Sequence record: DQ121662.1
Source: Escherichia phage Jk06
DNA length: 46,072 nucleotides
Reading direction: 5' to 3' (one strand)
Part shown: positions 4,764-23,055 of the stretch, one piece after another
Layout: each line of letters opens with the position of its first letter
Position numbering within the stretch: position 1 is the first letter of the stretch
Made by a program: the position numbers and the translations under genes
The notes under the pieces: model-generated
The model's database searches: none
What the model saw: only the letters and a program-made list of their open reading frames with translations
Told to the model about the DNA's origin: nothing

Positions 4764-4773
4764 TCTACACTAA

Positions 4774-4798
4774 ATAAAAAACCCGCACTAGGCGGGTT
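4774..4798 (-). terminator. hairpin plus U-run between tail assembly I and J-like genes (possible attenuator)
   Basis: AACCCGCACTAGGCGGGTT stem-loop followed on the minus strand by a T-run, about 15 nt upstream of the J start. Confidence 0.4.
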
Positions 4799-4804
4799 GT
4801 GATT

Positions 4805-6158: not shown

Positions 6159-6873
6159 AGTCTAACTGATTATTTTCTCCGAACCTTAGTTTGCACGCAC
6201 GAACCGTTCCGGCACAGAAGTCTTGCGATGGGTCAGTCACAGGCACGTTGTCCTTGTCGAAGTATCTATCACCCATATAGTTACATCCATTCCCTGATCG
6301 GTACTGATTGCGCTGAGCCCAATAACAAACTGACTGAACAAGTCTGGCCGGAATATAAATACCATCCATGTCCATTGGGCTGGTTAATTCAAATGAGGCC
6401 GTGTTGTAGTCAACCTGCTTAGGTCGCTCAATGAAGTAAACCAACTTGCGGTAATCCCCATCAGCAATGGTGCCATCTTCGTTAATATTCTCGCGAAGGG
6501 TGATCCAGATAGTAACCTTAGCCTGAACAAGACCGTTGTAAGTGCGGATAAGAGCCGAGATGTTTTGGTCAACGTTGGATACAACTAGTGTTACCTTGTT
6601 TGCCTTCCCGTCCGAAGTCATGTTAATACCCTGAATTCCAAAAGGCCTTGCGCCGTACTCTTCGCCACGGAAACTGATTGTCTTTGCTGGTAGGGTCTGG
6701 CCTGTTGATTGCGCCATCATAATTTCTTCAGGCGTGTAGCTGATGTTCTCCCCATGGAAGCGGTATGTTGGCGCCGAGAACTTGCTGCCATCAACTTCAA
6801 TTAGTGTAACAACCTCACCAGGGAACAAGCTTTGTAATTGATTCTCAAACTTAGTGCTTAATGGCGTAGCCAT
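6109..6873 (-). CDS. minor tail protein (lambda L-like)
   Basis: 254 aa ORF with a C-terminal Cys cluster; located between M-like and K-like genes; RBS GGAG upstream. Confidence 0.7.
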   Translation of the reverse strand: MATPLSTKFENQLQSLFPGEVVTLIEVDGSKFSAPTYRFHGENISYTPEEIMMAQSTGQTLPAKTISFRGEEYGARPFGIQGINMTSDGKANKVTLVVSNVDQNISALIRTYNGLVQAKVTIWITLRENINEDGTIADGDYRKLVYFIERPKQVDYNTASFELTSPMDMDGIYIPARLVQSVCYWAQRNQYRSGNGCNYMGDRYFDKDNVPVTDPSQDFCAGTVRACKLRFGENNQLDFGGCAAASLQAKANQN

Positions 6874-6912
6874 GATATTTCTCCAATAAAAAAGACCCCG
6901 TAGGGTCTTAGT

Positions 6913-7263
6913 TTACTGCATCGAGGTGAAAACTTCTACAAACTGCATTGATACAGTCTGCACTTCCTTGGTGTTTGGTGTGACGCTGATACTGTCCTGA
7001 GCTACAACAAACAGCTTAAGCTCACCCTGCGGAGTTGTCCATGCGAACGGGGTGATGATGTGAGCAAAGCAGAAGTCCAACACTTCCTTCCAGCTGGTGT
7101 TGGTGTAGGTCATGTTGTAGGTGCGCTTATTGGTCCTGTAACCTCCGGTTCCGCGCTGCTCGTAGCCATTGCCAAAGCTAACAACCCTAACGTTATTCGC
7201 GTTAGTAAAGTTTGCTGATCCACCTTGAATTTGGGTACACCATGTAAAAGTATCTAATGCCAT
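6913..7263 (-). CDS. minor tail protein (lambda M-like)
   Basis: 116 aa ORF immediately downstream of the tape measure gene; conserved position. Confidence 0.6.
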   Translation of the reverse strand: MALDTFTWCTQIQGGSANFTNANNVRVVSFGNGYEQRGTGGYRTNKRTYNMTYTNTSWKEVLDFCFAHIITPFAWTTPQGELKLFVVAQDSISVTPNTKEVQTVSMQFVEVFTSMQ

Positions 7264-7294
7264 TTAAAATCCTTAGGGGCCGAAGCCCCATTTA

Positions 7295-10200
7295 TTAACT
7301 ATAACCTCGCAAGAACTGGTAAGCCGTTCCGCCCTGCTGGAAGGACTGAGTAATCTCTTCCGCGATGATAACCCTGATACCAGATTCTAACTGTTTAGCG
7401 TCATTACCGCCACCACCGCCAAGACCTGTCTGAACGGTAACATTCACTCCACCAACATTAACGTTACTTCCACCAACAAGCCCGCCAGTCGCATAGCCAG
7501 GACCAGCACCAACCACTCCACCATTTGCGTATCCGCGCATTAACTTATAAAGGTTATCAACGCCAATCCTTGAGGTTGCCTCCTTCGTAAAGACGAATTC
7601 ACCTTTATGCACCGTGCCAGCTGGCTCGTACTTACCACCGTTTCCAGTATAACCGCCAGAAGCGAAACCAAATGCGCTACCAATAGAGCCAATTGCACCA
7701 CCACTACCGCCAAAACTGGAGATGGTTGATTCAATCGCCTTAATTAAAAGTAGCTGCGTTGCAATGCGTGCAATCTGCTTCAGAATCGATGCGGTAAACT
7801 CACGGAAGCTAGCTTCTCCAGTAGTTACCAGGTTTGTTATCTGGTCAGTCAATCCGTTAAAGGCACTCATGGCTAGCTCGGAACCAATCTGATTAAAGTT
7901 TGCCAATTCATCAGCCGTCTCAGCAAACGCAGATTTAACGCCAGCCAGCCAGTTACCACGTAATGCATCTTCCTGATTGTAGAAATTCTGACGAGCCTGA
8001 AGTAAAGCCTGGAAGTCAGTGTCATCTACGGAGCCACCTTTAGAAATTTGCTGGGCTTCTAGCGCCGCCAACTCACGCCGCCTTTCCGCTTCGCGCTGAG
8101 ATAATCCTGCTCCAACACTAATTGATGCCGCTTCAGCGTTAATCTGCCGAGTCTTCTTGATGTTGTCATCAAGAAGTTTATTGGCCCTTTCTTGCAGCAC
8201 AATCTGGTCGCCAATCTCAGCCTTCTCGCGAGCGAGTCCTAAGATTTTATCCTGCTGCAACAGTAATGATCGCTGTTGCTTTGTGATGGTTCCGTCTGCA
8301 AGCCTTTCATTAAGGATTGCAAACTTAGCTTCCTCCGCAAAAAGCTGCTTGCGTTCGTTACTGATAACATCACTAATCTGGCGGTGTTCCTGAAGAACCT
8401 TAAGCTGAGCCTGCAGAGCTAGAACGCCAGACTCATAACTTATAGTCAAATCCCTCTCTTCTTTTGCTCCAGATTTTGTCTTTTTACTTCTCTCCTCAAT
8501 TGCTTTAATCTCATCGGCCAAAGCCTTTCTTCTTGATTCTGAATCTCTATCAGAAGTTCCAGTTTGACTTTCTGAACCCTCTCCAACACTCAAGTAACCA
8601 GTCTCGCCCCTGCGAACCCTTGCATACCTATCAGCGATAGATTTAGCTAGCCTTATGTTTTCCTTTTCTATTGCGTCATTATCCTTCCTTAGTTGTTCGG
8701 CTATTCCATTACCAACGCCAGATGCTCCTGGTATCTTTTGTAAAGCCTCTATCCCGCGTATTACGAAATCATTTATTAGCTTGTCGCCAGTGCCAATTAT
8801 CAGTCTTATTTGCTCAATAGTCGCAGCTATAACGTCAGTAAATAGGTTTAGAGCTCCTATAGTCCTGTCACCTATAGCATCCCATGTGTCTGAAACGAAC
8901 TTACGGAAATCGCCCCAAGCCAATTCAAGAGGTGTAAGCGAGCCTTCAATCTGCTTTGTAACTGACTCATTTCTAGCTGCAAATATTTCTAAAGCTGCTG
9001 TTACTGCTGCTGTTTGCCCTTCCGTTTCTTTTAGGTTGTTAACTAGGGTCAGCTGCCCTTCGCTAAGAAAGTTAAATTGCTTATCTAACTCTATCAGCCC
9101 CTTAACTGGATCTTTTGCTATCTTATCAAAGTCAGATATTATTGATTTCCGCAGACCTTGAACTAACAGCTGAAAGGTTAGCAACAGACTTAGCTATTAA
9201 GTTAATCTGACTAACAGTAAGCCTTCCGTTTGATACTAGCGACTGGTAAATGTCACCAATAGAACCTTTTGTTGCCCTTGATGTTTCATTTAGCTGATCA
9301 GCGTAATCCTTGATAGCGGCAACTGATAAAGTCGACGACCTTCCAGTTTCAATTATTGCGTTATTAAGTTGCCTAACCTCAATAAATGAGTCGTAAGCGG
9401 CTTTACCAAGAACAGCTAATGAAGCAATTATCGCGCCACCAAATATAGTTGCAGCACGACCAAACCTTAAGATAGCCTCATCACCAAGAGTCCTAACATC
9501 AGCAAATGAACTTCTCAGCTCTCCTATTGATGATACATAATCTATAACTGCACCTTGCGCAGCTGATAATGTATTTGAAAATCCACCAAATGAATCTGTA
9601 ATCTGCGGTATTTGCTGGGTAAGCACCATAAATAAAGGCATACCGTTAGCAATCGAGCTAGTGATATCATTGATCTGTACAGGAAGGAACCTTAAGGCCT
9701 GATTGTACTGACCTGCCGATATCCCAGCCGCCTGAAACGCCCTACTTTGATTGGCTATAGCGTTAGTATTGTTACTTGATGCCTGTGTTATATCTATCTA
9801 TTATTGGTGCTGCCTGATCGCTAACTCCAAGCTGTGCCGCCCTTAACTTTAAGAACTCATCCCTACTTAATGTCGCTGCATCAGCCTGTGCTTGAAGCGA
9901 CCTAATAAATGATTGTGCTTGCCTCTCAGCGGACTCTTTATTTTTTGCAGCTTCTATAGCCGCCCTACCCTCCTCAGTTAATGCTGACCTAGACCTTATT
10001 AACCTATTTGTTTGCGTTTCTAATGCTTCACCAAGCCTGTAAAACTCAGCCTCTGGAACAACCCCTGCGGAGAAGGCTCTATCAAGAGAACTTGCTGCAT
10101 CTTGAAGTTTTCGCAATTTCGAAGCTGTTGGATCAATTGCCGACTGAAGCGACTGAAAAGCACTTCTCTGCTCAGAAAGATACCTTGCAGTGTCGCGAGC

Positions 10201-10352
10201 CTGATTCTTCGCAACCAGCTCAGCGTTTAACGAACTCGCTAACTCCAGCTGCCGCCTGTTCATTGGCACGTTTAAATTCTTGCAGGGACTTTATGCCCTG
10301 GATCAACCTGGCGAACGTCAACGCCAAGAGTGATACCTGCAAATTCTGCCAT
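7295..10352 (-). CDS. tail tape measure protein, reading frame interrupted at about 9.13-9.19 kb, 9.64-9.78 kb and 10.27 kb
   Basis: Track ORFs 9772-10269, 9132-9641 and 7295-9184 are contiguous, coiled-coil rich with a Gly-rich C-terminal part; ATG at 10352 preceded by GGAGG. Confidence 0.75.
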
Positions 10353-10361
10353 GTAACCTCC

Positions 10362-10388
10362 ATAAAAAAACCTCCACAAAGGGAGGTT
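10362..10388 (-). terminator. hairpin plus U7 run immediately upstream of tape measure RBS
   Basis: AACCTCCCTTTGTGGAGGTT stem-loop followed by TTTTTTT on the minus strand. Confidence 0.5.
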
Positions 10389-10641
10389 ATTTTTGCCTTA
10401 CTTGCATCATCTCAAGTGCTTTGCACTCCAGTATTCGCAAGTCATTTAAAGTCATCTCTTTGTCCTTGACATTATACACATCAAAGAGGAAAGGGAGTAC
10501 TGAATAATCTATTCCGGTAGCGCCGTTCATACCTACACGCCATTGAGTTGAAGCTGCCTGATAAACAGTCCATGCCAGCATCATGTCATCATCGAAGTGT
10601 AACTCCTCTGGCTCCTCATCTTCGTAATCGGAACGCCGCAT
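10387..10641 (-). CDS. tail assembly chaperone, distal ORF (possible frameshift extension of the upstream chaperone)
   Basis: 84 aa acidic ORF whose frame is open across the stop of ORF 10704-11018 (-1 frame); location between major tail and tape measure genes. Confidence 0.45.
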   Translation of the reverse strand: MRRSDYEDEEPEELHFDDDMMLAWTVYQAASTQWRVGMNGATGIDYSVLPFLFDVYNVKDKEMTLNDLRILECKALEMMQVRQK

Positions 10642-10703
10642 TCCAATGGCTTCAAGTTCGGCGTCCGTTGGCTCTCTTTGATACTGTAGATATACTGCGC
10701 GCT

Positions 10704-11018
10704 TTAGACCTTTGCGCGCTGGCCCGCCAGAGCTTGCATGTAAGCATTAGTCAGTGCCAGAACGGATGCGGGGAACAGAGATACCAGCTCTTCGATGTTC
10801 TCGTCGTTAAATTCTTCTTCAAGGTTCCAGCCGCTGCAAATCTCTTTAACAAAGTCAAAATCCTTAAGGCCTTCGGTCTGGAATACTTCCTGAATCTCCT
10901 TAGCCTTACGGTGCTTGGCATTGAAGATAACCTCAGCTTCCTCGCCGTTGATCATCTGGAACTTAACCGGAAGCTTGAAATCAGGGAGCGCGCCTAATTT
11001 TAATTTGAATTTCGCCAT
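10704..11018 (-). CDS. tail assembly chaperone
   Basis: 104 aa ORF directly downstream of the major tail protein gene and upstream of the tape measure gene. Confidence 0.55.
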   Translation of the reverse strand: MAKFKLKLGALPDFKLPVKFQMINGEEAEVIFNAKHRKAKEIQEVFQTEGLKDFDFVKEICSGWNLEEEFNDENIEELVSLFPASVLALTNAYMQALAGQRAKV

Positions 11019-11061
11019 TTAAATAATCCTCTCGTGTTTGTTTGAGTTGAAATTATAACAT

Positions 11062-11086
11062 AAAAAAAGCCCCTGTGAAGGGGCTT
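11062..11086 (-). terminator. hairpin plus U-run after major tail protein gene
   Basis: AGCCCCTTCACAGGGGCT stem-loop followed by TTTTTTT on the minus strand. Confidence 0.5.
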
Positions 11087-11091
11087 GATTG

Positions 11092-11742
11092 TTATGCAGC
11101 CAGGAAGCTATAGCGTCCACGTACCGTAATTGCTACGGATACAGTTTCGATCTCGTTAACGGAAACGTTTGGAGTTTCGTTAAACGCGATAGTGCCAGTC
11201 CAAAGTCGAACTTCGCCAGCTTTAGGAACGTATGCACGAATCGCAATCAGCGCGCCAGACTCGTCGTAGTTGCGGAGTACCGGGTAGATCGGGTTGGTGA
11301 ACTCGTGAGCAAACGTATAGGTCGTGTTTACCGCTGACTTATAAGTTGGAATCTGCTGCTCACGGTCATCAGCCAGGCACTGATAAGTAACGAACTGCTG
11401 CTCTCCGCCATCAGTTGAAACGTCTTGAACACAAGGCATTTCATACCAGGTAAGAACCTTGTAGATCGATGCCGTTCCGCCAGCTGGGAACTGAAGCGGG
11501 TCAGTAGTGTCAATGCCTTCAACGGTAATTGTTGTAGCCGTTGATGTAACTACTCGCAACTGTTTCTCTGAAAGTTTAGACCATGAAGATGACTCAACAA
11601 CAATGAAGTCACCAGCTGCGAAAGTTGAAGCGTCATCTACCGTCATAACTGGCTGAGCTGCGTTAGTGATAGCCGTTACGGCTACCGATTCAGATTTAGA
11701 GCCTTGCAAAAAAATTTGTGTGCCATTGCTGAGATGGGCCAT
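11092..11742 (-). CDS. major tail protein
   Basis: 216 aa ORF in the position of a siphovirus major tail subunit, between neck genes and chaperones. Confidence 0.65.
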   Translation of the reverse strand: MAHLSNGTQIFLQGSKSESVAVTAITNAAQPVMTVDDASTFAAGDFIVVESSSWSKLSEKQLRVVTSTATTITVEGIDTTDPLQFPAGGTASIYKVLTWYEMPCVQDVSTDGGEQQFVTYQCLADDREQQIPTYKSAVNTTYTFAHEFTNPIYPVLRNYDESGALIAIRAYVPKAGEVRLWTGTIAFNETPNVSVNEIETVSVAITVRGRYSFLAA

Positions 11743-11756
11743 GTAAATCTCCTTAA

Positions 11757-12143
11757 TTAATCCATACGTACGTAGAATCGGACAGGAATGAACCAGCCGG
11801 ATTGCGATTTCACTGGAGGAAATACGGATCCGCCTTCATAAATGTATCCGCTGTCAAGCATTGTACCATCGGCGAAAGCTTCTGACAATCGCCCAGCCAA
11901 TTGGCGAGGTCTATCAGTCCCCTCACCTGGTGAAAAGAATATAGAGACCTGAACCATGCCTACGTAATACCTGCATGTTCGCTGCAATCCCCATGTCACA
12001 CTATCAACCTCCGTGTAATCAAACTTCAACCATGAACTTCCGTTTTTGGGTGGCGTGAATCCGCAGTTCTCGTAAGCAACTGGTAGACTGCCAGCAATAT
12101 CAACTGCCGCATCACTAACCAGTTTCCTTGCTGCAACCATCAT
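11757..12143 (-). CDS. tail completion / tail terminator protein (start chosen at the internal ATG at 12143)
   Basis: Track ORF 11757-12272 overlaps the upstream gene by 128 nt; the internal Met gives an ATGA-type junction with the upstream stop. Confidence 0.45.
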   Translation of the reverse strand: MMVAARKLVSDAAVDIAGSLPVAYENCGFTPPKNGSSWLKFDYTEVDSVTWGLQRTCRYYVGMVQVSIFFSPGEGTDRPRQLAGRLSEAFADGTMLDSGYIYEGGSVFPPVKSQSGWFIPVRFYVRMD

Positions 12144-12144
12144 T

Positions 12145-12573
12145 TCATAGTGCACGTTTAGCCTCCTGTACCGCCTCAGCAAAGTAACGGCCAAGCCTCT
12201 TTTGGACAACTCCAAGAACACCAGAAGGTGCCTGATTGGATGAACCAAACTCAAGACCTTGCGCATAATCAAGGCGGTTGCTAATGTAAATTACGTTCGT
12301 ATTGGCATCTCTGGCTAGTGCGTAAATTTGCCTACGAAGAGAGTTACGAGTCTCATTGCCATCAGGGTCGTAATTATTCAGCGACTGCGCGGCAGGTGAG
12401 TTGCCAGTGGCCTGCCAGTTACCCCTGAATCGACCCGTATCAACCGGAGATAGCTTAACGATGTCTTTGGTAGCCTTGGTTAGCGTGCCTTCCACAATCA
12501 ATTCTACTCCCTCTGTCACGCCATCAATCCATGCGTTAATTGAGTTCCTGAAACTAACAACGTCATTAGCCAT
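12145..12573 (-). CDS. head-tail joining (neck) protein
   Basis: 142 aa ORF in the neck module; position-based call. Confidence 0.4.
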   Translation of the reverse strand: MANDVVSFRNSINAWIDGVTEGVELIVEGTLTKATKDIVKLSPVDTGRFRGNWQATGNSPAAQSLNNYDPDGNETRNSLRRQIYALARDANTNVIYISNRLDYAQGLEFGSSNQAPSGVLGVVQKRLGRYFAEAVQEAKRAL

Positions 12574-12627
12574 ATGTTGCAGCCCTCCGCAGTACTGGCC
12601 TGTAGGCGATTACCGTTCCGGTCGGCT

Positions 12628-12942
12628 TCACTGGTCTAGGGTCAATGACTGTGTAGCTTCCTGGTCAATGTAGATGCGGTCGCCTTCCGATACAACTGAA
12701 TCAGCAGTAAAAATTCCGCGACGGTCACCGAACTTGATGATGTCACCGTCAATGTCTCTTGCTTTGAATTCACGAATAACACCCCGCACAGTGTAGGAAG
12801 TGCCTGGTGTGCGCACTTCATAGCCATTAACGATAGAGATGGCTGGCTGTGTCGTAGCTTCGAAAACTCCATCACCATCTGACAGGAGATTAATACCAGC
12901 CTTAATTTGCTGCTGCAAAAGTGCATGATTCATCGGCAGCAC
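12628..12942 (-). CDS. head-tail adaptor / head closure protein
   Basis: 104 aa ORF in the neck module; position-based call. Confidence 0.4.
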   Translation of the reverse strand: MLPMNHALLQQQIKAGINLLSDGDGVFEATTQPAISIVNGYEVRTPGTSYTVRGVIREFKARDIDGDIIKFGDRRGIFTADSVVSEGDRIYIDQEATQSLTLDQ

Positions 12943-13307
12943 CTCGACCCACCAGAGGTAATCAAGCCCCAGCGGCCAACCTTGAGACGCATCAAATCAA
13001 TGTAAAGCTTACCCCATGAGGATTCCTCAAGGTTTGATGAGCTAGCTGCGGCAGTGCTTGTATCGTAGCTAATCGTGTACTCGCCTGAAAGTGAGTAGGA
13101 CTTAACCCGCTCAGATGATGTCTGGCTTGAATCATTCTCAGTCTTAAGTGCAATATCCTGGCTAAGCAAGTGAAGAGTGTAGAATGCCAGTGCCTGAACC
13201 TGCTTGTCACCAAACTTGTCTAAGCAGATGAATAGCTTGGCTACCTCAATCCATGCGTTAAGAACATCATCAGGCTGACTCTTAAGAGGCGGGTAAAGCG
13301 TGCGCAT
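12930..13307 (-). CDS. head-tail connector protein
   Basis: 125 aa ORF in the neck module; position-based call. Confidence 0.4.
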   Translation of the reverse strand: MRTLYPPLKSQPDDVLNAWIEVAKLFICLDKFGDKQVQALAFYTLHLLSQDIALKTENDSSQTSSERVKSYSLSGEYTISYDTSTAAASSSNLEESSWGKLYIDLMRLKVGRWGLITSGGSRCCR

Positions 13308-13374
13308 GTACGCAATTACTTCTCATTCATGTGATATCTCCATACAATAAAGGACGCCGAAGCGCCCTTTTGGT

Positions 13375-13620
13375 TTATTTGTAGTCGCCGCCATTCTCAG
13401 CTTCATCAATAGTCTTTGGTTGCTTCTTGGGCTTAGCCTTGGCTTTAACTTCCTGCTCGATTTCTTTAGTTGCCTTGTGGTCATCCTCAACCTCAAGCTT
13501 ACCTTCAGCTACCAAAATCTTTAATCCAACTGATAACTCTTCAACCTCGATAGTTTCGCCTGGAAGGTAATCTTTTGCGCCAAGACGGATAACACAAGCA
13601 CCTTTATGTAACAGTTTCAT
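13375..13620 (-). CDS. hypothetical Lys/Glu-rich protein downstream of the capsid gene
   Basis: 81 aa ORF preceded by TATATAAT, a CAATCGAAACAAAGGAGG leader and an RBS. Confidence 0.4.
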   Translation of the reverse strand: MKLLHKGACVIRLGAKDYLPGETIEVEELSVGLKILVAEGKLEVEDDHKATKEIEQEVKAKAKPKKQPKTIDEAENGGDYK

Positions 13621-13666
13621 TTATTCCTCCTTTGTTTCGATTGTTTGATTATATAGCCATATAAAC

Positions 13667-13689
13667 AAAAATACCACCCCGAAGGGTGG
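13667..13689 (-). terminator. intrinsic terminator after major capsid gene
   Basis: CCACCCTTCGGGGTGG hairpin followed by a T-rich run on the minus strand. Confidence 0.55.
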
Positions 13690-13712
13690 TAAGTAGTAAG
13701 CAATAATTGCCA

Positions 13713-14659
13713 TTACGCGAAGGTGATGCCTTTCATTACAGCCATTGTCAAAGGACGATACACGATCAAGCCAGTTGCCTTAGAGGTTACTGGAATTTTG
13801 AAATGTAAATCCTTAGGCTGAGCTGGCAGCGCGTTAGTCGCTTCCGGAATCTCGATGGCCATGTTGTTAGGGTCTTTCTCATAAGCAATAGCAGCAGAGG
13901 TGCCAGTGCCATTGTAATCATTCAGGTACTGAACGAACTCAACAGTTACTCCGCTGTTGTTCTGGCGGAAGAACTCACCGTAGCTAACAGAGGTACCAGG
14001 AACCAGGTTCTGCATGATACGACGAGCGGTAGTAGGCAGAAGCAGGTGAGTTGCACGGTGCTGACCATTAGTTGAAGTCTCAATGATATCCAGCAGGCTT
14101 GTAATATCGCTTACTGCTGTAGTTGGTTGAGACCATGAGCCACCGCTAACAACGTTGTTGATATTTGGATAGTCGAACACACTCGGGATACCGTGAGCAG
14201 TAGAGCCTGACCATACCAGTTTATCAAGCAGCTTATCGTGAGCTTCGAAAGCAAGAGATTGCTTGCGAGTAGATAGTGACTGACCGGTAGCTTGACCAAC
14301 TTTAATTTCATCGATGGAAATCAAGAAAGCATTACCAAAACGGAAAACTTTACCCTGACGTTCAGTTGCTAAAGCGTCAACAAGTGGCAGGTCATCAGTG
14401 TAGTCAGCTACGATCTGAGCAATACCAACGCCATCAAATACCGGATACTCGAAGTACTTAGCATAGCCGGGAATTTCATTGCTTACAGGGAACAGGTTTA
14501 CTACGGAGTTCTGGTCGTACTCAGTTTCGTAAGCTTTATTCAGGCTTGCAGTTAGCTGCTTCACGGTCCAGATACCAGCCGCATCAGCCTTATCAACGCC
14601 CATAGCTCGCAGGTGGTTAGTAATCTTTTCTTGCTCGAAGCGTCAAGTTTGATAGTCAT
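13713..14659 (-). CDS. major capsid protein, frame change near 14600-14660
   Basis: 296 aa track ORF has capsid-like composition; ATG at 14659 with AAGGA RBS lies in a different frame 19 codons upstream of the track start. Confidence 0.8.
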
Positions 14660-14750
14660 ATTAAGATGCATCCTTTTGTTTATGAGTTTACGTGTCAATT
14701 ATACACGAGATTTTGGTTGGGACAATAGAGTAATCATTTCTCTATTGATT

Positions 14751-15587
14751 TTATGCATCAAGCCTTACTAGCTCTATGCATAGGGCTTGGTTTCCATTCA
14801 CAATGTATCCAGCTGTAAATAGATTTATGGTTGCTCTCCACATTGTGTCTGTTGTGGTTTCATAAAAACTAAGAGTGTATGGCCTGATACCTTGGAACTC
14901 TCCAATATCACCAAGAAGTACTGTGCCAGTTTCTGTTGATGTAGATATCGAAGTTCTTACCGTTGTGTTAGTGTAAACTCCAGTTTCATTGAACGCTTCA
15001 ATATTACCCCTTATAGTTCTAGCTGTAGTGCCATCATCAATCCAAGCCCTAATACTAAAACGAATGTTTGAATCCAGTCTTATCCCTATAGAAATATTGC
15101 TTAAAGGTGCTGGAAGCCTAATCATGTGATTAGTGCCTGTGTTTGGTGATGTTCTAACTTTAAGGAATGATCTTGACATCCCTGCGTCACCTTTATCGCC
15201 TTTAGGGCCAATTGGACCTTGAGGGCCAACCGGACCTTGTGGACCTGCTTCACCTGAACCTCCGCCCTCATCACTTACAAAATCACCTTTCGCCAGAGCT
15301 GAAATATAAGCGCCATCCTCGAAGTGGGCATTACCAAACCTTCGCCAGCCCTGTGCTAGATATCGGTTAACCCTGTTAACTAAACCCTGAATTGTGGTGT
15401 CTGATGTAACCATGAAGTCTTCAACGTTGTTTGCTGTTCCTTTTGCCATCTTCATGCCAAATAGGGTACCGCTCAGCATCTGCACGTCGCCATATGGCTG
15501 GAATCCTGATGAAATCATCATTTTTACGTTTCTGGCTAAGGTTTCAGGTGAATTACCTACTGCCATAGCAATTTCTGTGTAAGCCAT
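14751..15587 (-). CDS. collagen-like repeat protein (candidate head fibre / decoration protein)
   Basis: 278 aa ORF with G-X-Y run GEAGPQGPVGPQGPIGPKGDKGDAG between an N-terminal domain and a Thr/Ser/Asn-rich C-terminal domain; RBS AGGAG upstream. Confidence 0.6.
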   Translation of the reverse strand: MAYTEIAMAVGNSPETLARNVKMMISSGFQPYGDVQMLSGTLFGMKMAKGTANNVEDFMVTSDTTIQGLVNRVNRYLAQGWRRFGNAHFEDGAYISALAKGDFVSDEGGGSGEAGPQGPVGPQGPIGPKGDKGDAGMSRSFLKVRTSPNTGTNHMIRLPAPLSNISIGIRLDSNIRFSIRAWIDDGTTARTIRGNIEAFNETGVYTNTTVRTSISTSTETGTVLLGDIGEFQGIRPYTLSFYETTTDTMWRATINLFTAGYIVNGNQALCIELVRLDA

Positions 15588-15638
15588 CTTTATCTCCTGA
15601 TTGGTTAATAATCATTGACAGTCTAACAGTAAAGAGCA

Positions 15639-15662
15639 ATAAAAAACCTCCCGAAGGAGGTT
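15639..15662 (-). terminator. intrinsic terminator
   Basis: ACCTCCTTCGGGAGGT hairpin followed by a T-run on the minus strand, downstream of gene 15680-16147. Confidence 0.5.
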
Positions 15663-15679
15663 TGATTAAGCGTTTATAG

Positions 15680-16147
15680 TTATTTTTGGATAACCTGAAC
15701 CTCAACCAGTGCTGGCTCTCCAGATGCGGCATCAGCTGCCTGGAATCCACCTGCGAATGTCCAGTTAGTAGTTAAGGTGCCGCCGCTTGTTGCTAATCCA
15801 TTGGCATCAACGGTAACGGCGCTACCAAATGCAGGAGCTGCTGAAAGGCTAGTTGCCATCCAGATTCGACCGTGAGTCATTACGTTAGACACGGAGAAGT
15901 TGTCAACATCACCAGCAGAACCGCCATAAGTTCCCTTAGGAGACTCGTAATGCGACCTTACCAGGACGCCGTAAACATTACCAGATGCCGGAGCTACCAG
16001 CACCTTGTGACCATCAACAACAGAATCAACTCAACAGCAGTGCCAACATTGCGCACGAGAGCCCGAAGATGTTACACAGGCACCATCAATATTGTACAGA
16101 GAGGTATCTGCAACCATACCAGCAGTAGCTTGACGACGAATTGCCAT
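15680..16147 (-). CDS. hypothetical head-module protein (possible decoration protein), frame interrupted near 16000-16030
   Basis: ATG at 16147 with AAGGAG RBS opens a 38-codon frame that stops near 16030; track ORF 15680-16003 continues in another frame. Confidence 0.4.
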
Positions 16148-16158
16148 ATTAAGACTCC

Positions 16159-17268
16159 TTATTTTTTCAATTTAGCGAGGCGAGCGCGCGGGTCTAATTT
16201 CTTAGGCGCGTCGGCTGCGTCAGATTTATCCGCAGCAGCAACTGCTTTGCGGGCTTCGGCCATTTTATCACTATCTTTAGCGATATCAAAGGCTGCATCG
16301 ATGTATGCGTCAGATTTCTCAGCAACTTCAATACCAGACACTTCTTTAACGTAAGCAACTTTGATTGCTTTAGCATCCAGGCCATCACATTTAACGCCAG
16401 CTTCTGCGGCAACTGCGACCAGGGCAGCCATTTCGTCAGCATCAGTCTTAGCTTTGGCTAAAGCAGCTTCGATTTCAGCGGGGATGCCATCAACTTTAGC
16501 TTTCAGTGCGTCGCGCTCAGCTTCCAGAGTGTCAGCTTTAGCTTTAGCCTGCTCCGCATCAGCCTTAACAGCTTCGATATGCTTAGCAACTTCCGGGGCG
16601 ATTTCGAACTCCTGTTCGCCATCGAGTTTAATCTTAATCATCAATTTATCCTCTTTATTTGATTGAACGGTATCAGTATACGGGTTTTCCTGTTCCGCGT
16701 CCAGATTGAGTTTAGCAATACCTGCGCGACCTTTATATACGAGTGCGATATGATTAACAACGATATTCGTCTGTAGCGCATCAAAGCGTACCCAATCAGC
16801 AGGAATCTCATCCTGGCTTGCGTACTCTCCATCAAGCTTGTACTCACCCGTTTCATTACTACCCCAGCCAGGAGACTCAATGTCAACAGTGTTGTAGCCA
16901 ACAGAGAGCTCACCAGCAACGCCAGACTTGGCCTTCTCAATTGCTTCCTTGTCGTAAACGGTAAGAGGAACAATCACTGCAGAGTCCTGACGCATAGCTG
17001 AGCCAGACACAGAACCAACAACCACCTCTTTAGCATTTTCAGAGTTGACAACCACGTGGCCAAGAGTTAGCGGCTTACCCTGATAACTCTGCAGCGAATC
17101 GGCTTTAAAAACCTCTGAAGCCGGACGGAACTCTCGGCGCTCTGAACCATCTGGCATATAGTAGGTTTGTACACCTACGCGAGCAACCACTGGGGTGTCC
17201 ACGAGAAAACCGTTCTCATCGAAACGGGCTTTTACCTTGGCGCTATCATAACGCATTTTACTCTTCAT
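16159..17268 (-). CDS. scaffolding protein (possibly protease-scaffold fusion)
   Basis: 369 aa ORF with Ala/Lys/Glu/Asp-rich coiled-coil C-terminal half; located between minor head and capsid genes. Confidence 0.55.
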   Translation of the reverse strand: MKSKMRYDSAKVKARFDENGFLVDTPVVARVGVQTYYMPDGSERREFRPASEVFKADSLQSYQGKPLTLGHVVVNSENAKEVVVGSVSGSAMRQDSAVIVPLTVYDKEAIEKAKSGVAGELSVGYNTVDIESPGWGSNETGEYKLDGEYASQDEIPADWVRFDALQTNIVVNHIALVYKGRAGIAKLNLDAEQENPYTDTVQSNKEDKLMIKIKLDGEQEFEIAPEVAKHIEAVKADAEQAKAKADTLEAERDALKAKVDGIPAEIEAALAKAKTDADEMAALVAVAAEAGVKCDGLDAKAIKVAYVKEVSGIEVAEKSDAYIDAAFDIAKDSDKMAEARKAVAAADKSDAADAPKKLDPRARLAKLKK

Positions 17269-18022
17269 TAATTAAATTCTCCCATTTAGGAACAGCCCAG
17301 CAACGACACCCGTATTGCTGACCGGGGAATATCGCAAGGCCGTCAAGTTTTCCAGCGTCCGAACCATCTGATTTAAAGCTAACCCCCTCACGCAAAACGT
17401 GAGATGGTCGCTCTTTGTCGTCAAGTCTACCACGCCAAACATACTGAGATACACCGGCATCTTCAAGCCTTCTCCGCATAAGGTTTGAGTTTAGAGACCC
17501 TGTAATTCCAGCAGCGATATTTGCTGTTCTCTTTCTGTAGATTCGGTATCTATCATCAAGGTCAACAGTGTTACCAGCCTGCGCAGTAATGGCGTTGTTT
17601 ATGAAATCATCCTTGATGTTGTTTAGCAGCTTTGATGCACTTAACTGCGTGCCAACAATCCAGGAGTTCCTGGTGTCGAGCCACCATGGTTCATCCGCGT
17701 TAATACCATACAATCCTAGCGCAAGAACTACAGGATTATTCTTACCTCCGGAGTTGTTGGCCACCTTAAGGAATTGCGCCGAGTTATAACGATATATTGC
17801 TAGCGCCAGCGCAGGCAGAGTGGAAACAAAACCAGATAGCAGCGCTGAGATTGCATCTGAAAGGTCTGAATCTTCATCTTCAATCTCCTGCGCTGTGTCA
17901 ATTTTTAGCCTCTTTGCAGATAACTTCATTTGCTCAATAAGTTCAGATACCGCAACCAAAAGGCTGCGGTTAATCTGGCTCTCAATTATTTGCGGATACA
18001 TCCAGCGGGTCTTCTGATTCAT
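17258..18022 (-). CDS. minor head / head morphogenesis protein (Mu F-like, SPP1 gp7-like)
   Basis: 254 aa ORF ending with a GCRCWAVP-type Cys motif; directly downstream of the portal gene. Confidence 0.7.
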   Translation of the reverse strand: MNQKTRWMYPQIIESQINRSLLVAVSELIEQMKLSAKRLKIDTAQEIEDEDSDLSDAISALLSGFVSTLPALALAIYRYNSAQFLKVANNSGGKNNPVVLALGLYGINADEPWWLDTRNSWIVGTQLSASKLLNNIKDDFINNAITAQAGNTVDLDDRYRIYRKRTANIAAGITGSLNSNLMRRRLEDAGVSQYVWRGRLDDKERPSHVLREGVSFKSDGSDAGKLDGLAIFPGQQYGCRCWAVPKWENLINEE

Positions 18023-19255
18023 TAATTACAACCTCCGTTTGAATTGAGCCTTCACCAATCTTAACCTCAGTTGAAATTGCGCGCAACGTATCTCTTGCTT
18101 CGTCTGCGTCAATGATTCCAGCTGCAATCAATGCAGCAACTGAGTTAACATTCTTCTCAAGAATCTCAGATTTATCCTTGTCACTAACCTGCGATAGAGG
18201 GTTAAATTCTACTGACCACTCTTGCTCGGTTACGATGAACGGCAGCAGGAACTCAAGCAGAGGCAATAATTCAGCCTTTCGCTTACGGTCAACATAACCG
18301 TAGAAAGTCTCTAGAGCAGTGTTCTGGCTTGCTGACACACCACCAACATTCTTACCCTTAAGGATAATCTCATGAATACCGCTCAGAGCAACGATTCGAT
18401 CGAACTTCTGACTCAGAAATGTATCAATACCGCCAATATCTGAGTTGAGAACGTTGTACTCTTCACTATCCGCGTCAATCCCGATAGCCTGACCAACGCC
18501 ACTGTTATTATCCACTTGAGCCAGACGTAAACGAGCTGCTCCATCTGAATCATCACATAAGTCAGCAAGGCCTTTTGCTTTCCACACTCGCCTGCTGTTT
18601 ACGACGAAGTAACTGAGTAGCTCAGTCGCTCACAGTTCTGATAGTCGTCAATCGCGTCAATTAAGTCACTCAGTTATTACTGCTTGCGCTCCCAGCCATC
18701 GTTATTACGACGTAGGTTGTTAGGTACTCGCTCGCCATCAATGATGTGACAGCGTGTATAGTGCACATCGTAGAACGTTGCCGACCCGTTTGGCGTGATG
18801 CGGTAAGTTAATGGCTTACCAAAACGCGCGTTACGTGGATTCTCCTCGCGAGTCTGGACCTTAATTTGCTGCCGGTCGTATACACGAACCGTTTCAAGCT
18901 CCGCACCTTCACGAACCGGGCTGGTTAGCGCCCTTCCATCCTTCACAATTGCCACTACAGCAGCGCCACCGTATAGTCTCGCCCAGGCTAGTGCGTCGAT
19001 TACGTTATCTGAAAGGCCTAAATCATCCCATCGCGACCAGAATGCACCCTCATCATCAATGCCTTCAATGTTAAAGCCTGCGCCAAGCGCGACCTCTGGC
19101 ACGATATCAATAATTCGACGAACCAACGCACTACTGACGTAAAGCTGCTCAAGCTGTGCTGGAGCTGTCAGGCCAAGGCCGCCAAACTTTCCGTAAATCT
19201 CGCTACCATCAATCCCGTTAAGAAAGATGTTTGCGTAGCTATCTGCTTTTACCAT
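17982..19255 (-). CDS. portal protein, frame interrupted near 18590-18680
   Basis: Track ORFs 18677-19282 and 17982-18587 are contiguous; likely start MVKADSY at 19255 with RBS GGAG. Confidence 0.75.
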
Positions 19256-19270
19256 GTAATTTCTCCAATA

Positions 19271-19297
19271 AAAAAGCCCCATGTAGGGGCTAGTTTA
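19271..19297 (-). terminator. intrinsic terminator after moron gene, overlapping portal RBS
   Basis: AGCCCCTACATGGGGCT hairpin followed by TTTTTT on the minus strand. Confidence 0.55.
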
Positions 19298-19312
19298 TCA
19301 TAGCTTTTGTGA

Positions 19313-19687
19313 TTACTGGAATTTTACTTCGAACTTGATTGTGTCGCATTTTACGCCATCCTCATCAAGTTGATCTACAGTATAGCGCACATTCCCGAAC
19401 TCAATCATGTCAACCTCATGCTCGTTTATGTAATATCTAAGCCTTGGCTTTTTATCACCATAAGAAGCTGCACCAGCGCAGTCAGTCTCAGTCTCGAAAC
19501 TCTGATCGCCATCAAGGAGTTCGAACTTGTAGAATGCTCCGTTTTCTACAGCTCGATAGCAACCATCGTCGTCGTAAGTTGAGATGTAGCCATCTCCATG
19601 ATCTTCAATGTCATATTGCTTTCCAACAGTGAAGCCAGGATGCTTTTCATCAGCGCATCCGGTAAACGTAGCTTTTAAAGTTTTCAT
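19313..19687 (-). CDS. hypothetical acidic Cys-containing protein (moron between terminase and portal)
   Basis: 124 aa ORF with its own promoter module (19717-19760) and terminator (19271-19297). Confidence 0.5.
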   Translation of the reverse strand: MKTLKATFTGCADEKHPGFTVGKQYDIEDHGDGYISTYDDDGCYRAVENGAFYKFELLDGDQSFETETDCAGAASYGDKKPRLRYYINEHEVDMIEFGNVRYTVDQLDEDGVKCDTIKFEVKFQ

Positions 19688-19716
19688 TCTATTAACCTTC
19701 TCGTTTGTGTGAGGTG

Positions 19717-19760
19717 ATTATAAGCCATCCATGGCGATTATCTTTACCAATTCGTGCTAT
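19717..19760 (-). promoter_or_regulatory. promoter module variant (IR-like ATAGCACGAATTGGTAA, 22 nt, TATAAT)
   Basis: Reverse complement of 19744-19760 matches the repeated IR motif with one change; perfect TATAAT at 19717-19722 on the minus strand. Confidence 0.5.
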
Positions 19761-21323
19761 CTAACGCCAGCTAGCCTCATTAAGCGGGCTCTCGGATCGT
19801 CACTCAAGTTCAATTCACAGTTGATGGCCATTGTTGTCGTATCCACAATGTCATCATGGGGATGAGAATCGTCAGCAGTGAACGCCGAGAACTCGGTTAA
19901 TAGCGAGGTAAGCCATGGCGCAGAGTCAGGCAGAACTACGTTACCAGCTTTAATCTGTGGCAGTGCGCTCATCACCCTGGTTAACTTATCTGTATCTGGA
20001 ACGAAAGGCTCGATAGGAGTTCGCATTACCCGACCCGCCGACTGGATAAGTCCTATTCCAGACGCTTTCTTCTCGATAATAACCTTGCGCAATATACCAT
20101 CTGTCTTACTAGCTGCTCTATGCTTACTCTCAAAGTCCAGAAGAGTTTGCTCAAGTTCAGGTGCTTCCCATTTACCCCTTACCATATCGAGAAGATAAAG
20201 CCTGTTATCTTTGCGCCCCCATAGCTGGAATACTGAGTAGTCGCTATAACTCTTAGTAGTCATGGCAGTATCAGCCGTAATGAATCGGTAGTCATACTTG
20301 GCTGGAGGTCTGTTATTCTCATCGAGGCGAACAACCAATCTACGTTGATCAGGTTTCCACCCAGAGCTACTGGAGATTGTTGGTACTGGCTAAGGAATGT
20401 GTACGGATCTGAGTCCCACATTGCCATCAAGTCATGCACAGATTCCTTCTGCGGGAAGTAGCTGTAATACTTAACACCATCTCGCTCGACGTACTCGGAT
20501 GAAAGCACGTCCTTCTCGAACTGCTCACGAATCCAGTCAGGGAGTTCATTCACATATTCTTCAGTGACCAGCGCCGGTATCTTCACTACATCAAAGTCGA
20601 TACCCATACCACCAGAAGTCATGAACCACGTTGAATCCTGAGTATGAAGCCTTTGCTGAATTGACAGAATTGGCGTAGCTTTACCTTTAACGCTACTCGC
20701 CCTACGTGAGCGAATGGTATTTTTAAGTAAAACGTGGACAGCTTCTCGCCTTACCTTGCTGAGCATATCGTCTGGCTTGTCTGGGTCATCAAGCATCAAG
20801 CAACCGCTATAGGTTTCAGTAATATAACCGCCACGAGCGCCGGTAATCTGACCGCCAATTGCCTTAGATATCGCTTCGAACCTAACCTTTCCACTCTCGT
20901 CAAGAACCTGAATCTCGTCATCCTTGCACGTGCCGAACTTACAGGGCCATAGTTCCTGAAACTCACTGACTTTATAAGGTCGCGAACACGCTTAGAGTTG
21001 CGCTTCACCAGACTGTCAGAGAATGAGAGGCTCAGATTTCGCACCTTCTTTAGCTTAAGCATTGAATATACAGGGAAGTGTATTGAAGTAATCTCGGTCT
21101 TCCCGGCCCCAGGAGCCACGTTAATGATGGTATCCCTACGCTCGCCACTAATAACCTCGTCAATTATTCGGCAAAGGTACTTGTGATGCCAGTTAGGGAT
21201 GTATCGCTCTCCCTGGCTTAGCTGAAACCACACGCGAAGGAATGCCTCGAAGCTGTGAGTGGACAGCGCTTTAACTGCCAGCTTTTCGGCTGGCGTCATT
21301 TCTTCCCAAACTAATGTCTTCAT
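19757..21323 (-). CDS. terminase large subunit, frame interrupted twice (about 20260-20340 and 20796)
   Basis: N-terminal fragment has Walker A VAPGAGKTE; C-terminal fragment has a nuclease-type acidic motif; three overlapping track ORFs 20796-21323, 20260-20799, 19757-20338. Confidence 0.85.
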
Positions 21324-21836
21324 AGTTTATCCATTACAGAAGCCAGAGCGGCCTTCATCGCTTCTTCATCGTTCACTACGGCATTTGAAGCGTTATTGAT
21401 GTTAACCTCTTGCGGCTTATCAATACCAAGGTCTTTGCCAATAAGTCCAGGGTTGACGATGTTGTTAACACCCAACTGGTACTTCTGTTCAAAGATAACT
21501 GAGTCGACGAACTCCATAACTTCATCGAATCCTGGTGATGATCGCCATTTGCTAATAGCATTATGACCAACGCCGCAGAAAAGCTGGAATCCAGGTTATC
21601 GTAAATACCCTCGGCTTGTGAACAAGGTTTTCCGTTACGACACCCTGAAAGCTTGCTGTCTCGATAGCTTTAATTGCCTGCTCTTCAGCCCAGCTGAAAT
21701 ACCTTACAGCCATGTCGAATACCTGCTCGGGAGTGTATCTGTGGTTAATCTTAAGATTGGCAATGTCGCCATACTTCTTATTGTAAAGCTCCTTGAAGTT
21801 ACCAATCTTCTGGTGAATTTTTTTCTCTTCTGACAT
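21320..21836 (-). CDS. terminase small subunit (putative), frame interrupted near 21520-21570
   Basis: Track ORFs 21561-21836 and 21320-21517 immediately upstream of the large terminase gene; position-based call. Confidence 0.45.
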
Positions 21837-21883
21837 TTGATATTCCTCCTGTTTTAAAAGTCATTGTACCATGACTATGGACG

Positions 21884-21907
21884 AAAAAAAGCCCTCACAA
21901 GGAGGGC
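21884..21907 (-). terminator. intrinsic terminator
   Basis: GCCCTCCTTGTGAGGGC hairpin followed by TTTTTTT on the minus strand. Confidence 0.5.
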
Positions 21908-21935
21908 AAAGTACTGCATTGCGAGATGACCAATC

Positions 21936-22121
21936 TCAAACGAGGGATACTTTATCAACGCTGACTTTGTGGACTGTCAGGTCAATCTTAAATGCTGCCT
22001 TTGCGGCTGCAACTGCTTCTTCAGGGCTTTTAGCAATGAACCTACCTTCGTAGGATTGCTGGCAAGATTTGCATTGCCGACCCATTAGGCGGGAAGTTAA
22101 ACGGACTTCGTAGTTATTCAC
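21936..22121 (-). CDS. hypothetical small protein with a CxxC pair
   Basis: 61 aa ORF downstream of the tRNA and followed by the terminator. Confidence 0.35.
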   Translation of the reverse strand: MNNYEVRLTSRLMGRQCKSCQQSYEGRFIAKSPEEAVAAAKAAFKIDLTVHKVSVDKVSLV

Positions 22122-22137
22122 TAGGATGCTCCATGTT

Positions 22138-22213
22138 TGGTGTTCCGCACTGGACTCGAACCAGTAACTGAGACTTAGGAGGTCTCTGCGTTATCCTGTT
22201 ACGCCAGCAGAAC
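22138..22213 (-). tRNA. tRNA-Arg (anticodon CCT), 76 nt with encoded CCA
   Basis: Hand-folded cloverleaf: 7 bp acceptor stem with one G-U pair, D-arm GCGT/ACGC, anticodon stem GAGAC/GTCTC with loop CTCCTAA, T-arm ACTGG/CCAGT with loop TTCGAGT, discriminator A, CCA. Confidence 0.75.
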
Positions 22214-22251
22214 TAGAATGAGTCCCGCTTACCGAATGCGGGGAGGTTTCA

Positions 22252-22292
22252 CAATCCTCGGAAGGTCCGGCCAATCCTCGGAAAGGTCCGGC
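22252..22292. repeat. tandem direct repeat, 2 x about 20 bp (CAATCCTCGGAA(A)GGTCCGGC)
   Basis: Two adjacent near-identical units directly upstream of the tRNA on the minus strand. Confidence 0.6.
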
Positions 22293-22488
22293 ATACACCA
22301 TTTGCGCTGGTGTAGTGGTATTTGCCTCGTATCTTTATCCAGCCCGGCTATCGGCTTGCATCTCCGCGATGCGCGTTACGGTCATTGCCGTCTACGTGGT
22401 TAATACTAACCACTTTTAACATTTTCGTCAAGCCATGACGACGAAATAAATCCACGTCAACATGCCAGCCAGGAACCAGATTGATAGC

Positions 22489-22704
22489 TCAGTCATAAAA
22501 TACCTCAAAGTAACCAAACTCAATGTCATTGCCATCTTTAACCATCTCTATACACCCATCTTCTGACTCACATTTAACCCAACCATATGCGGGTGATGAC
22601 AAAATGCTGTAAGATTTACCAGTTTTGAACTTCTTATCATTGTAAGACCCAATACATCTGACTTTCCCTAGTGATTTAGTCATAAATCTGCTCCCCATCT
22701 TCAC
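22489..22704 (-). CDS. hypothetical protein
   Basis: 71 aa ORF in a co-oriented cluster of small early genes. Confidence 0.4.
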   Translation of the reverse strand: MKMGSRFMTKSLGKVRCIGSYNDKKFKTGKSYSILSSPAYGWVKCESEDGCIEMVKDGNDIEFGYFEVFYD

Positions 22705-22915
22705 GCTTACCTACGCGACCAGCAAGATAGCCTGCAACCCAAACAAACTTCATCTTCTCGATGATTGTACTGACTGGGCTATGAAACTCACAGATAATCG
22801 CCTTCATGATGTCATTATCCTGCTTCTGCTTGCTTGTCAGCTTATCCACCGCCTCGTTAAGTTTCTTAGCTTGGGCGCGAACTGCATTAAATTGTGGTTG
22901 AGTAAGTCCGAACAT
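22676..22915 (-). CDS. hypothetical protein
   Basis: 79 aa ORF in a co-oriented cluster of small early genes. Confidence 0.4.
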   Translation of the reverse strand: MFGLTQPQFNAVRAQAKKLNEAVDKLTSKQKQDNDIMKAIICEFHSPVSTIIEKMKFVWVAGYLAGRVGKREDGEQIYD

Positions 22916-23055
22916 GATTAAGCCTTCTTGTAAGATTGAATATCGCCACCTAGGACTGCCTGCTGTGCCTTTGCTGATTCATAGCTGTCATACATTCGTT
23001 TGTGCATTACGCTATTGAACTTGCCAGTGTAGTACGTGTGAATCCATATCATGGG

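Follow-up and report, generated by a model that had tools for sequence, protein, structure and literature searches.

Why a virulent phage should carry one tRNA gene of its own, and what the sequence in front of that gene contributes, are the questions raised by positions 22,138 to 22,292 of Escherichia phage JK06 (sequence record DQ121662.1). The window analyzed here is the complete genome, which begins ACGCGTATATCAAATAGCAC and comprises 46,072 bp with a G+C content of 44.0%; all positions refer to this window, and features lie on its minus strand unless the plus strand is named. A preliminary description, made from the sequence alone, had proposed a tRNA-Arg with the anticodon CCT next to a tandem repeat. 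The tRNA is a genuine, canonical class I tRNA-Arg(CCU) gene at 22138..22213. The explanation favored for the locus as a whole, to which a probability of roughly 0.7 is assigned, is that this tRNA is expressed from a sigma-70-like promoter and supplements the host tRNA encoded by argW in the translation of AGG-rich proteins, the repeat being a neutral duplication. The analysis lends quantitative support to the textbook idea of codon compensation in a virulent phage with a single tRNA.

The tRNA-Arg(CCU) gene and the codon it reads

When applied to the whole window, ARAGORN reports a single tRNA, which occupies 22138..22213 on the minus strand and is a tRNA-Arg with the anticodon cct. The Rfam family RF00005 matches 22141..22213 on the same strand over the full model (positions 1-71), with a score of 57.6 bits (gathering score, 29) and an E-value of 5.8e-10. 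The gene spans 76 nt including an encoded CCA, has its anticodon at 22177-22179, and reads, on the minus strand, GUUCUGC-UG-GCGU-AACAGGAUA-ACGC-A-GAGAC-CUCCUAA-GUCUC-AGUU-ACUGG-UUCGAGU-CCAGU-GCGGAAC-A-CCA. Its acceptor stem of 7 bp, D stem of 4 bp, anticodon stem of 5 bp, and T stem of 5 bp form a class I cloverleaf, in which the positions of the tertiary interactions are complete when the sequence is set against the model (U8, A14, A15-U48, G18G19, A21, U33, A37, G53-C61, U54U55C56, and A58). The 76-nt gene of the preliminary description, which had left the strand unstated and named the loss of these conserved positions as what would speak against it, is therefore upheld.

The identity elements of E. 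coli arginyl-tRNA synthetase (ArgRS) are A20, C35, U36 (or G36), and A73 or G73, and C34 limits decoding to AGG. Correspondingly, the phage tRNA carries A20 within a 9-nt D loop (AACAGGAUA), C35, U36, and the discriminator A73, which is replaced by G73 in the tRNA-Arg of some relatives. Across 12 family members, RNAalifold returns the cloverleaf with double-sided, compensatory changes at 7 of the 21 pairs, such as pair 49-65 (A-U, G-U, or G-C) and pair 27-43 (G-C or A-U).

The existence of this tRNA is already known, as it is annotated in GenBank relatives and has been published for JK06 and for phage vB_EcoS_Rogue1 (Drexlerviridae, Rogunavirus; hereafter Rogue1). From 21500 to 23000, JK06 is 99.6% identical to Rogue1, whose tRNA-Arg is annotated; the Rogue1 gene (JQ182736, 3387-3462) is the same in 75 of 76 positions and agrees with that of JK06 in locus, flanks, and the two-copy repeat. 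Passages of the Rogue1 paper state that Rogue1 and JK06 have in common "a single arginyl-tRNA" and characterize the tRNA of Rogue1 as "recognizing the rare codon AGG" (Kropinski et al. 2012, PMC3496638). Four further Rogunavirus phages have one arginyl-tRNA each (PMC4070988). Codon counts, the structure of the leader, and the distribution of the repeat are absent from the passages of PMC3496638 found by term search.

Codon usage was compared in six genomes by a uniform count based on open reading frames (ORFs), in which E. coli is represented by a 50-kb sample; Rogue1 was additionally counted by its 74 annotated genes. In the JK06 window, AGG occurs at 13.3 and AGA at 10.3 per 1000 codons, and together they make up 0.44 of Arg codons. 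The corresponding values are 12.3 and 7.7 (0.39) in Rogue1 and 10.5 and 13.9 (0.47) in phage TR1, both of which also have a CCU anticodon, 8.8 and 12.0 (0.41) in phage Rtp, whose tRNA-Arg has the anticodon UCU, and 5.1 and 7.2 (0.25) in phage T1, in which ARAGORN finds no tRNA. The E. coli sample gives 1.8 and 3.4 (0.08), in agreement with the earlier remark that AGG is rare in the host. AGG in JK06 thus stands ~7-fold above the host sample and 2.6-fold above the tRNA-less T1. It is the commonest of the six Arg codons in JK06 as well as in the annotated genes of Rogue1, where it accounts for 160 of 13,988 codons (11.4 per 1000) and for 160 of 672 Arg codons (23.8%). AGG is accordingly a common codon of the phage and a scarce one in the host sample, as is expected for a codon-compensating tRNA. 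If the G+C content of T1 is similar to that of JK06, as its published value indicates, base composition fails to explain the difference in AGG.

The codon is also unevenly distributed. In Rogue1, the packaging and structural genes contain 15.5 AGG per 1000 codons versus 6.4 elsewhere (2.4-fold; Fisher p = 3e-7), and the ORF-based count for the late block of JK06 gives 16.0 versus 9.8 (p = 0.0014), so that the count of late against other genes suggested in the preliminary description favors the support of late translation that it had considered. The AGG-rich genes of Rogue1 include those for the tape measure (0032; 31 of 1017 codons), the tail fiber (0038; 21 of 1128), the large terminase terL (0016; 10 of 514), and an HNH endonuclease (8 of 161). 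As a correlation, the codon-usage pattern supports codon supply.

Drexlerviridae depend entirely on the host RNA polymerase. In the proposed mechanism, this polymerase would start at a putative sigma-70-like promoter on the minus strand (TTGACG-17-TAGTAT, 22403..22431), which was found by a consensus scan with 9 of 12 matches and whose position is kept in Rogunavirinae, T1, ESCO41, and BUCT-XGG-1. Transcription would yield a precursor of ~290 nt made up of a structured leader and the tRNA, and would probably continue through a 61-aa ORF to a terminator at 21907. RNase P would then free the tRNA, host ArgRS would charge it, and the product would add to the scarce tRNA-Arg(CCU) that the host makes from argW. 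Decoding would then no longer limit proteins rich in AGG, among them the tape measure, the tail fiber, and the large terminase.

Several observations weigh against this explanation. The most abundant late proteins are nearly devoid of AGG, with 1 of 315 codons in the major capsid gene (0022) and 1 of 424 in the portal gene (0017) of Rogue1; any benefit would therefore fall on large, low-copy proteins and not on bulk late translation. TR1 has a CCU tRNA and nevertheless uses AGA above AGG, so the match between tRNA and codon is loose in some lineages, and T1 does without any tRNA. Furthermore, the correlation has no direction, and the presence of the tRNA may itself have let AGG drift upward.

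The phage tRNA resembles the E. coli argW tRNA in its CCU anticodon, its identical 7-nt anticodon loop CUCCUAA, A20, A73, a 4-nt variable loop, and the encoded CCA. It differs in that 47 of 76 positions are identical (62%), with changes in the acceptor, D, anticodon, and T stems alike. A blastn search of the JK06 tRNA against 5,426 complete E. coli genomes returned no match. Together, the low identity to argW and the empty search rule out both a recent capture from the host and a tRNA fragment of the attP type.

The same comparison bears on an alternative in which the tRNA is kept for anti-defense or against depletion, serving as a resistant or replacement supply when host tRNA-Arg is destroyed by anticodon nucleases (for example those of the colicin D, retron, PARIS, or HEPN type) or runs out through loss of host tRNA synthesis. 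Such a role has been published as a general hypothesis for phage tRNAs (PMC10264068), and defenses that cut tRNAs, host tRNA-Arg included, are documented, among them the tRNA-cleaving retron Eco2 (PMC12916289). With its divergent stems, the phage tRNA might escape a nuclease that reads the tRNA body. However, its anticodon loop is the same as that of argW, so the loop mutations proposed as a signature of evasion are missing. The sole tRNA of the phage also matches exactly the Arg codon that the phage over-uses, which codon supply predicts directly and depletion only indirectly, and no tRNase specific to tRNA-Arg(CCU) was identified in this analysis. This alternative is considered unlikely.

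The leader RNA and the tandem duplication

Between the putative promoter and the tRNA lies a non-coding leader of ~190 nt (22402..22214, minus strand). In an alignment of 11 Rogunavirinae, its 5′ part (22402..~22300) is near-invariant and gives way to a hypervariable spacer and then to a conserved 3′ part, which is followed by the tRNA. The near-invariant segment (22300..22402) has very few substitutions in these phages, fewer than the adjoining coding sequence, and the first ~25 nt of the leader (TAACCACGTAGAC..ACGAGGC) are kept family-wide, T1 included. A stem-loop scan and local folds place a hairpin, ACACCA-GCGCAAA-TGGTGT, at 22294..22314, the equivalent of which in Braunvirinae is CCTA-GCGCAAA-TAGG. 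Closer to the tRNA, hairpin H1 (GAGG-ATTGTGAAA-CCTC, 22243..22259) directly abuts hairpin H2 (CCCGC-ATTCGGTAA-GCGGG, 22224..22242), which is predicted independently by local minimum free energy (MFE) folding. A single-stranded, A/U-rich linker (ACTCATTCTA, 22214..22223), semi-conserved in Drexlerviridae, joins H2 to the 5′-end of the tRNA.

The two hairpins are maintained by compensatory change. Within Rogunavirinae and Nouzillyvirus, double-sided changes affect 3 of the 4 pairs of H1. Its stem reads GAGC/GCTC in phiEB49 and AGGC/GCCT in ESCO41, and further afield GGCTG/CAGCC or GGTCG/CGACC in Braunvirinae and GTTGC/GCAAC in T1; TR1 too has stems equivalent to H1. The stem of H2 varies as GCCGG/CCGGC, CCCGG/CCGGG, and GCCGC/GCGGC, its first and fifth pairs being swapped in a compensatory manner. 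When seven sequences from Rogunavirinae and Nouzillyvirus are aligned with MAFFT, pairing extends to 100% of cells and double-sided changes are seen at 6 of 11 pairs, a count that takes in 2 bp of a possible pseudoknot. This pseudoknot, of 2-3 bp, would join CCG/CGG just 5′ of H1 with CGG/CCG in the loop of H2, and it covaries between JK06 and the others. The covariation score of the same alignment was reached in 0 of 500 shuffles, and slid controls pair in 20-39% of cells, without compensation.

A covariance model built from the Rogunavirinae/Nouzillyvirus clade finds one module per genome in Braunvirinae (E about 1e-8), in T1 (1e-7), and, weakly, in TR1. As H1 is offset by 2 nt in Braunvirinae, the subfamilies were compared by structure-guided alignment. 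In the alignment to the covariance model, the proportion of paired cells is 99.2% and compensation is seen at 7 of 9 pairs; these values lean toward the model, and were cross-checked by local MFE folding, which recovers H1 and H2 in five lineages, and by RNAalifold on the Braunvirinae leaders alone, which predicts 36 pairs, including both hairpins, with compensation at 10 of the 36. Several of the Braunvirinae leader pairs are G-U and are thus possible only on the strand of the tRNA.

In T1 (locus L014, 7600-7742), the same promoter is followed by the same leader start (TAATCCCGTAGAC..ACGAGGC) and by H1-H2, immediately after which comes the ribosome-binding site for a protein gene, without a tRNA. 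The module therefore belongs to the leader of the transcription unit and not to the tRNA. The structured leader RNA is the one modestly new item of this locus. Its interpretation is tentative, and we place it slightly below even odds: the promoter, the conserved 5′ segment, the covarying hairpins, and the terminal H1-H2 would constitute an undescribed structured leader RNA found across Drexlerviridae, an independent cis-acting element ahead of the packaging and late genes, behind which the tRNA was inserted and of which the duplication in the JK06 lineage is a natural variant. The element may act in the processing or stability of the precursor, a role suited by stable hairpins followed by an A/U-rich single strand beside the RNase P site, or it may be a short antiterminator of the processive type that serves a late region rich in intrinsic terminators. 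If it regulates read-through or processing, it would represent a compact new cis-regulatory RNA in a classic group of phages.

Other identities for the leader were considered and rejected. The hairpins are not the anticodon and T arms of a decayed tRNA, as they abut without a variable region, have no acceptor pairing, maintain their covariation, and occur in T1, which lacks a tRNA. The leader is not a packaging (pac) site, as the terminal repeat of T1 starts ~8.4 kb upstream of terS and the packaging start of TR1 lies ~3.2 kb from its tRNA. The linker ACTCATTCTA, judged by eye as a boxA-like element, has positions too variable among lineages. Coding potential was dismissed because the Rogue1_0013 ORF and a plus-strand ORF at 22218-22403 cross the hypervariable spacer and are not conserved, and because the ATG of a 16-codon leader ORF is missing from phage e4/1c. 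Rogue1_0013 (window ~22229-22351, minus strand) and the plus-strand ORF (61 aa) overlie the leader hairpins and the spacer, and neither is likely to be a genuine gene. A permissive Rfam scan of 21850-22520 assigned the module, the leader, and the repeat to no known family, matching the tRNA and, by chance, the terminator only. The folding energy of the leader as a whole is uninformative (z = -1.17 for a 263-nt fold).

The tandem repeat lies within this leader. Tandem Repeats Finder reports it at 22252..22292 with a period of 20, 2.0 copies, 95% matches, and one indel; the units on the minus strand are 22292..22272 (21 nt, GCCGGACCTTTCCGAGGATTG) and 22271..22252 (20 nt, GCCGGACCTTCCGAGGATTG). 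It was correctly placed upstream of the tRNA in the preliminary description, though not immediately so, since it ends 38 nt 5′ of the tRNA start. The proximal unit holds the 5′ flank of H1, its 5′ arm (GAGG), and 4 nt of its loop. At ≤3 mismatches, the 20-mer has no further copy in the window, and a match appeared in 0 of 100 shuffles; hence, the repeat is not due to chance.

Apart from JK06 itself, the two-copy form was found only in Rogue1 and e4/1c in a search of 50,697 phage records. Ten other Rogunavirus phages (15 records) match from window position 22267 onward only, where unrelated sequence gives way to a single copy (..GACCTTCCGAGGATTG), and the other Drexlerviridae subfamilies examined have unrelated sequence at this site. 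The repeat is thus not a general feature of the locus. By sequence comparison, it is a local duplication of 20/21 nt that copies the start of hairpin H1 and is limited to the lineage of JK06, Rogue1, and e4/1c. A functional tandem-repeat element would be expected to be conserved in relatives or to have its unit reiterated elsewhere in the genome, and this repeat shows neither property. It is most likely a neutral product of slippage.

The alternative to slippage is that the repeat is functional, either as an additional leader hairpin or alternative partner of the 3′ arm of H1 that tunes the processing, stability, or read-through of the precursor, or as a direct repeat bound by a protein. Such a role is improbable. 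The neighboring hairpins are under clear structural selection, and the two copies are predicted to pair together into one extra stem-loop; H1 and H2, however, are predicted to persist with one copy or with two. Although they differ elsewhere, JK06, Rogue1, and e4/1c share the two-copy segment with 100% identity across 101 nt, which weighs against neutrality and leaves room for purifying selection. Set against this identity are the absence of the duplication from every other member of Drexlerviridae examined, the ten other Rogunavirus phages included, its location in the hypervariable spacer, the most variable segment of the leader in the alignment of 11 Rogunavirinae, and a total of just two copies of a unit that occurs nowhere else in the genome.

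The locus in related phages and the neighboring genes

The tRNA gene is widespread in Drexlerviridae, with 112 phage records matching the region. The JK06 tRNA is identical in 76 of 76 positions to the copies in AKS96 and C119, and Rogunavirinae copies in general are 82-100% identical to it while their flanks vary. Homologous tRNA-Arg genes with 73-79% identity occupy the same locus in Braunvirinae (Rtp, IME253, and AugustePiccard) and in Nouzillyvirus ESCO41, in the same setting, after the two-hairpin leader module and upstream of rtp16/rtp17-like genes and terS. They differ in having the anticodon UCU, which reads AGA and, by wobble, AGG, and in variable and D loops that are 1-2 nt longer. 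The anticodon is UCU in Rtp, IME253, ESCO41, and AugustePiccard (loci L025, L026, L028, and L029, respectively), and CCU in Rogunavirinae, TR1, and BUCT-XGG-1. Phages of the UCU type favor AGA over AGG, as in the Rtp counts above, and the preference between the two codons tracks the anticodon only in part. TR1 belongs to Braunvirinae, and its tRNA is 95% identical to the Rogunavirus copy, which suggests a horizontal replacement.

The locus is a hot spot at which tRNAs are gained, as the check in related phages proposed in the preliminary description shows. In Sd1, a tRNA-Trp(CCA) is inserted between H2 and the tRNA-Arg (L002, 2218-2291), and in phiEB49 a tRNA-Val with the unusual anticodon AAC lies directly 3′ of the tRNA-Arg (L003, 2443-2519). 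A 93-nt tRNA-like call follows the tRNA-Arg in Opt-79 (L011, 653-745), and AHP42 has a different gene at this position. Beyond the family, a viral contig of 435,856 bp in IMG/VR (L016, 889-964; also L022, 99-174) contains a tRNA-Arg(CCU) that is 72% identical and shares the 17-nt anticodon arm; its surroundings are unrelated, a tRNA-Leu lying ~325 nt upstream and a tRNA-Pro ~800 nt downstream.

That the tRNA-Arg is itself a decaying or non-functional passenger, such as a remnant of a tRNA cassette or recombination hot spot, is very improbable: the locus is plastic (a tRNA-Trp in Sd1, a tRNA-Val in phiEB49, another gene in AHP42, and no tRNA in T1) and the BUCT-XGG-1 copy has an extra base in the D arm and a U-U mismatch in the acceptor stem, yet the Rfam score is high, the tertiary and identity positions are all intact, the gene is nearly identical across Rogunavirinae despite their varying flanks, stem substitutions are compensated, and codon usage is shifted toward AGG.

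On the 3′ side of the tRNA, a co-oriented 61-aa ORF (21936..22121) has a GTG start with GGAG located 7 nt 5′ of it. It matches phrog_2919 with an E-value of 7.8e-29, covering positions 2-59 of the 60 in the profile, and its homologs are Rogue1_0014, rtp17, and T1 gp56. Several relatives annotate only a 49-aa form that begins at an internal ATG; the longer form is favored because the profile aligns across nearly its whole length. The unit of tRNA and ORF is closed by an intrinsic terminator at 21907..21891, found by a terminator scan (GCCCTCCTTGTGAGGGC + TTTTTTT, 21881..21907). Beyond it, an extended -10 element read by eye (TGGTACAAT, 21871..21863) precedes the small terminase gene terS, which starts at 21836. 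The statement that the tRNA lies just upstream of terS is correct, the two being on the same strand, but the 61-aa ORF and the terminator intervene over ~300 nt.

In JK06, terS is split into two ORFs and terL into three by single-base indels relative to Rogue1 (21595, 20965, 20332, and 19762). Passages of the Rogue1 paper describe the JK06 sequence as carrying numerous errors (PMC3496638). The indels fit this remark and are thus probably sequencing artifacts rather than biology.

On the 5′ side of the promoter lies the upstream gene (22704..22489, minus strand), the stop of which is overlapped by an unannotated hydrophobic mini-ORF of 22 codons (MTELSIWFLAGMLTWIYFVVMA, 22496..22428, minus strand) that ends within the -35 box. 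Changes in relatives are mainly synonymous (5 of 8 substitutions in e4/1c), so that the mini-ORF probably encodes a real small membrane peptide; a PHROG comparison gave no match.

Transcription of the late region and comparison with put RNA

The packaging and structural block downstream (2000-21999, minus strand) contains ~8 strong intrinsic terminators on its coding strand, at 21907, 19291, 15663, 13691, 11086, 10388, 6909, and 4798. Late transcription must therefore read through or re-initiate repeatedly. Counted on both strands, terminator-like sites in 2000-21999 number 31 versus 16.9 +/- 3.3 expected, and the annotation of T1 likewise shows intrinsic terminators in the late block. Phage HK022 employs its put RNA in just such a setting. 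Some of the late-block terminators are followed by promoter-like sites with a TG-extended -10, such as 11079..11052 and the element at 21871..21863 before terS. That H1-H2 might act as an antiterminator is an analogy given low odds, and the apparent possession by terS of an extended -10 promoter of its own counts against this role.

The known system to which the module can be compared is the put RNA of phage HK022, a cis-acting processive antiterminator of ~70 nt that consists of two long stem-loops and is present twice per genome, downstream of the early promoters (PMC9378689). H1-H2 differs from put in its length of 36-42 nt, its stems of 4-6 bp, and its single occurrence per genome, and it has neither sequence similarity to put nor an Rfam match. 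It thus falls outside put in size and copy number, and membership is not claimed. The resemblance is one of architecture only, in that both comprise two adjacent stem-loops with virtually no linker, preceded closely by a sigma-70 promoter and followed by terminators (PMC9378689).

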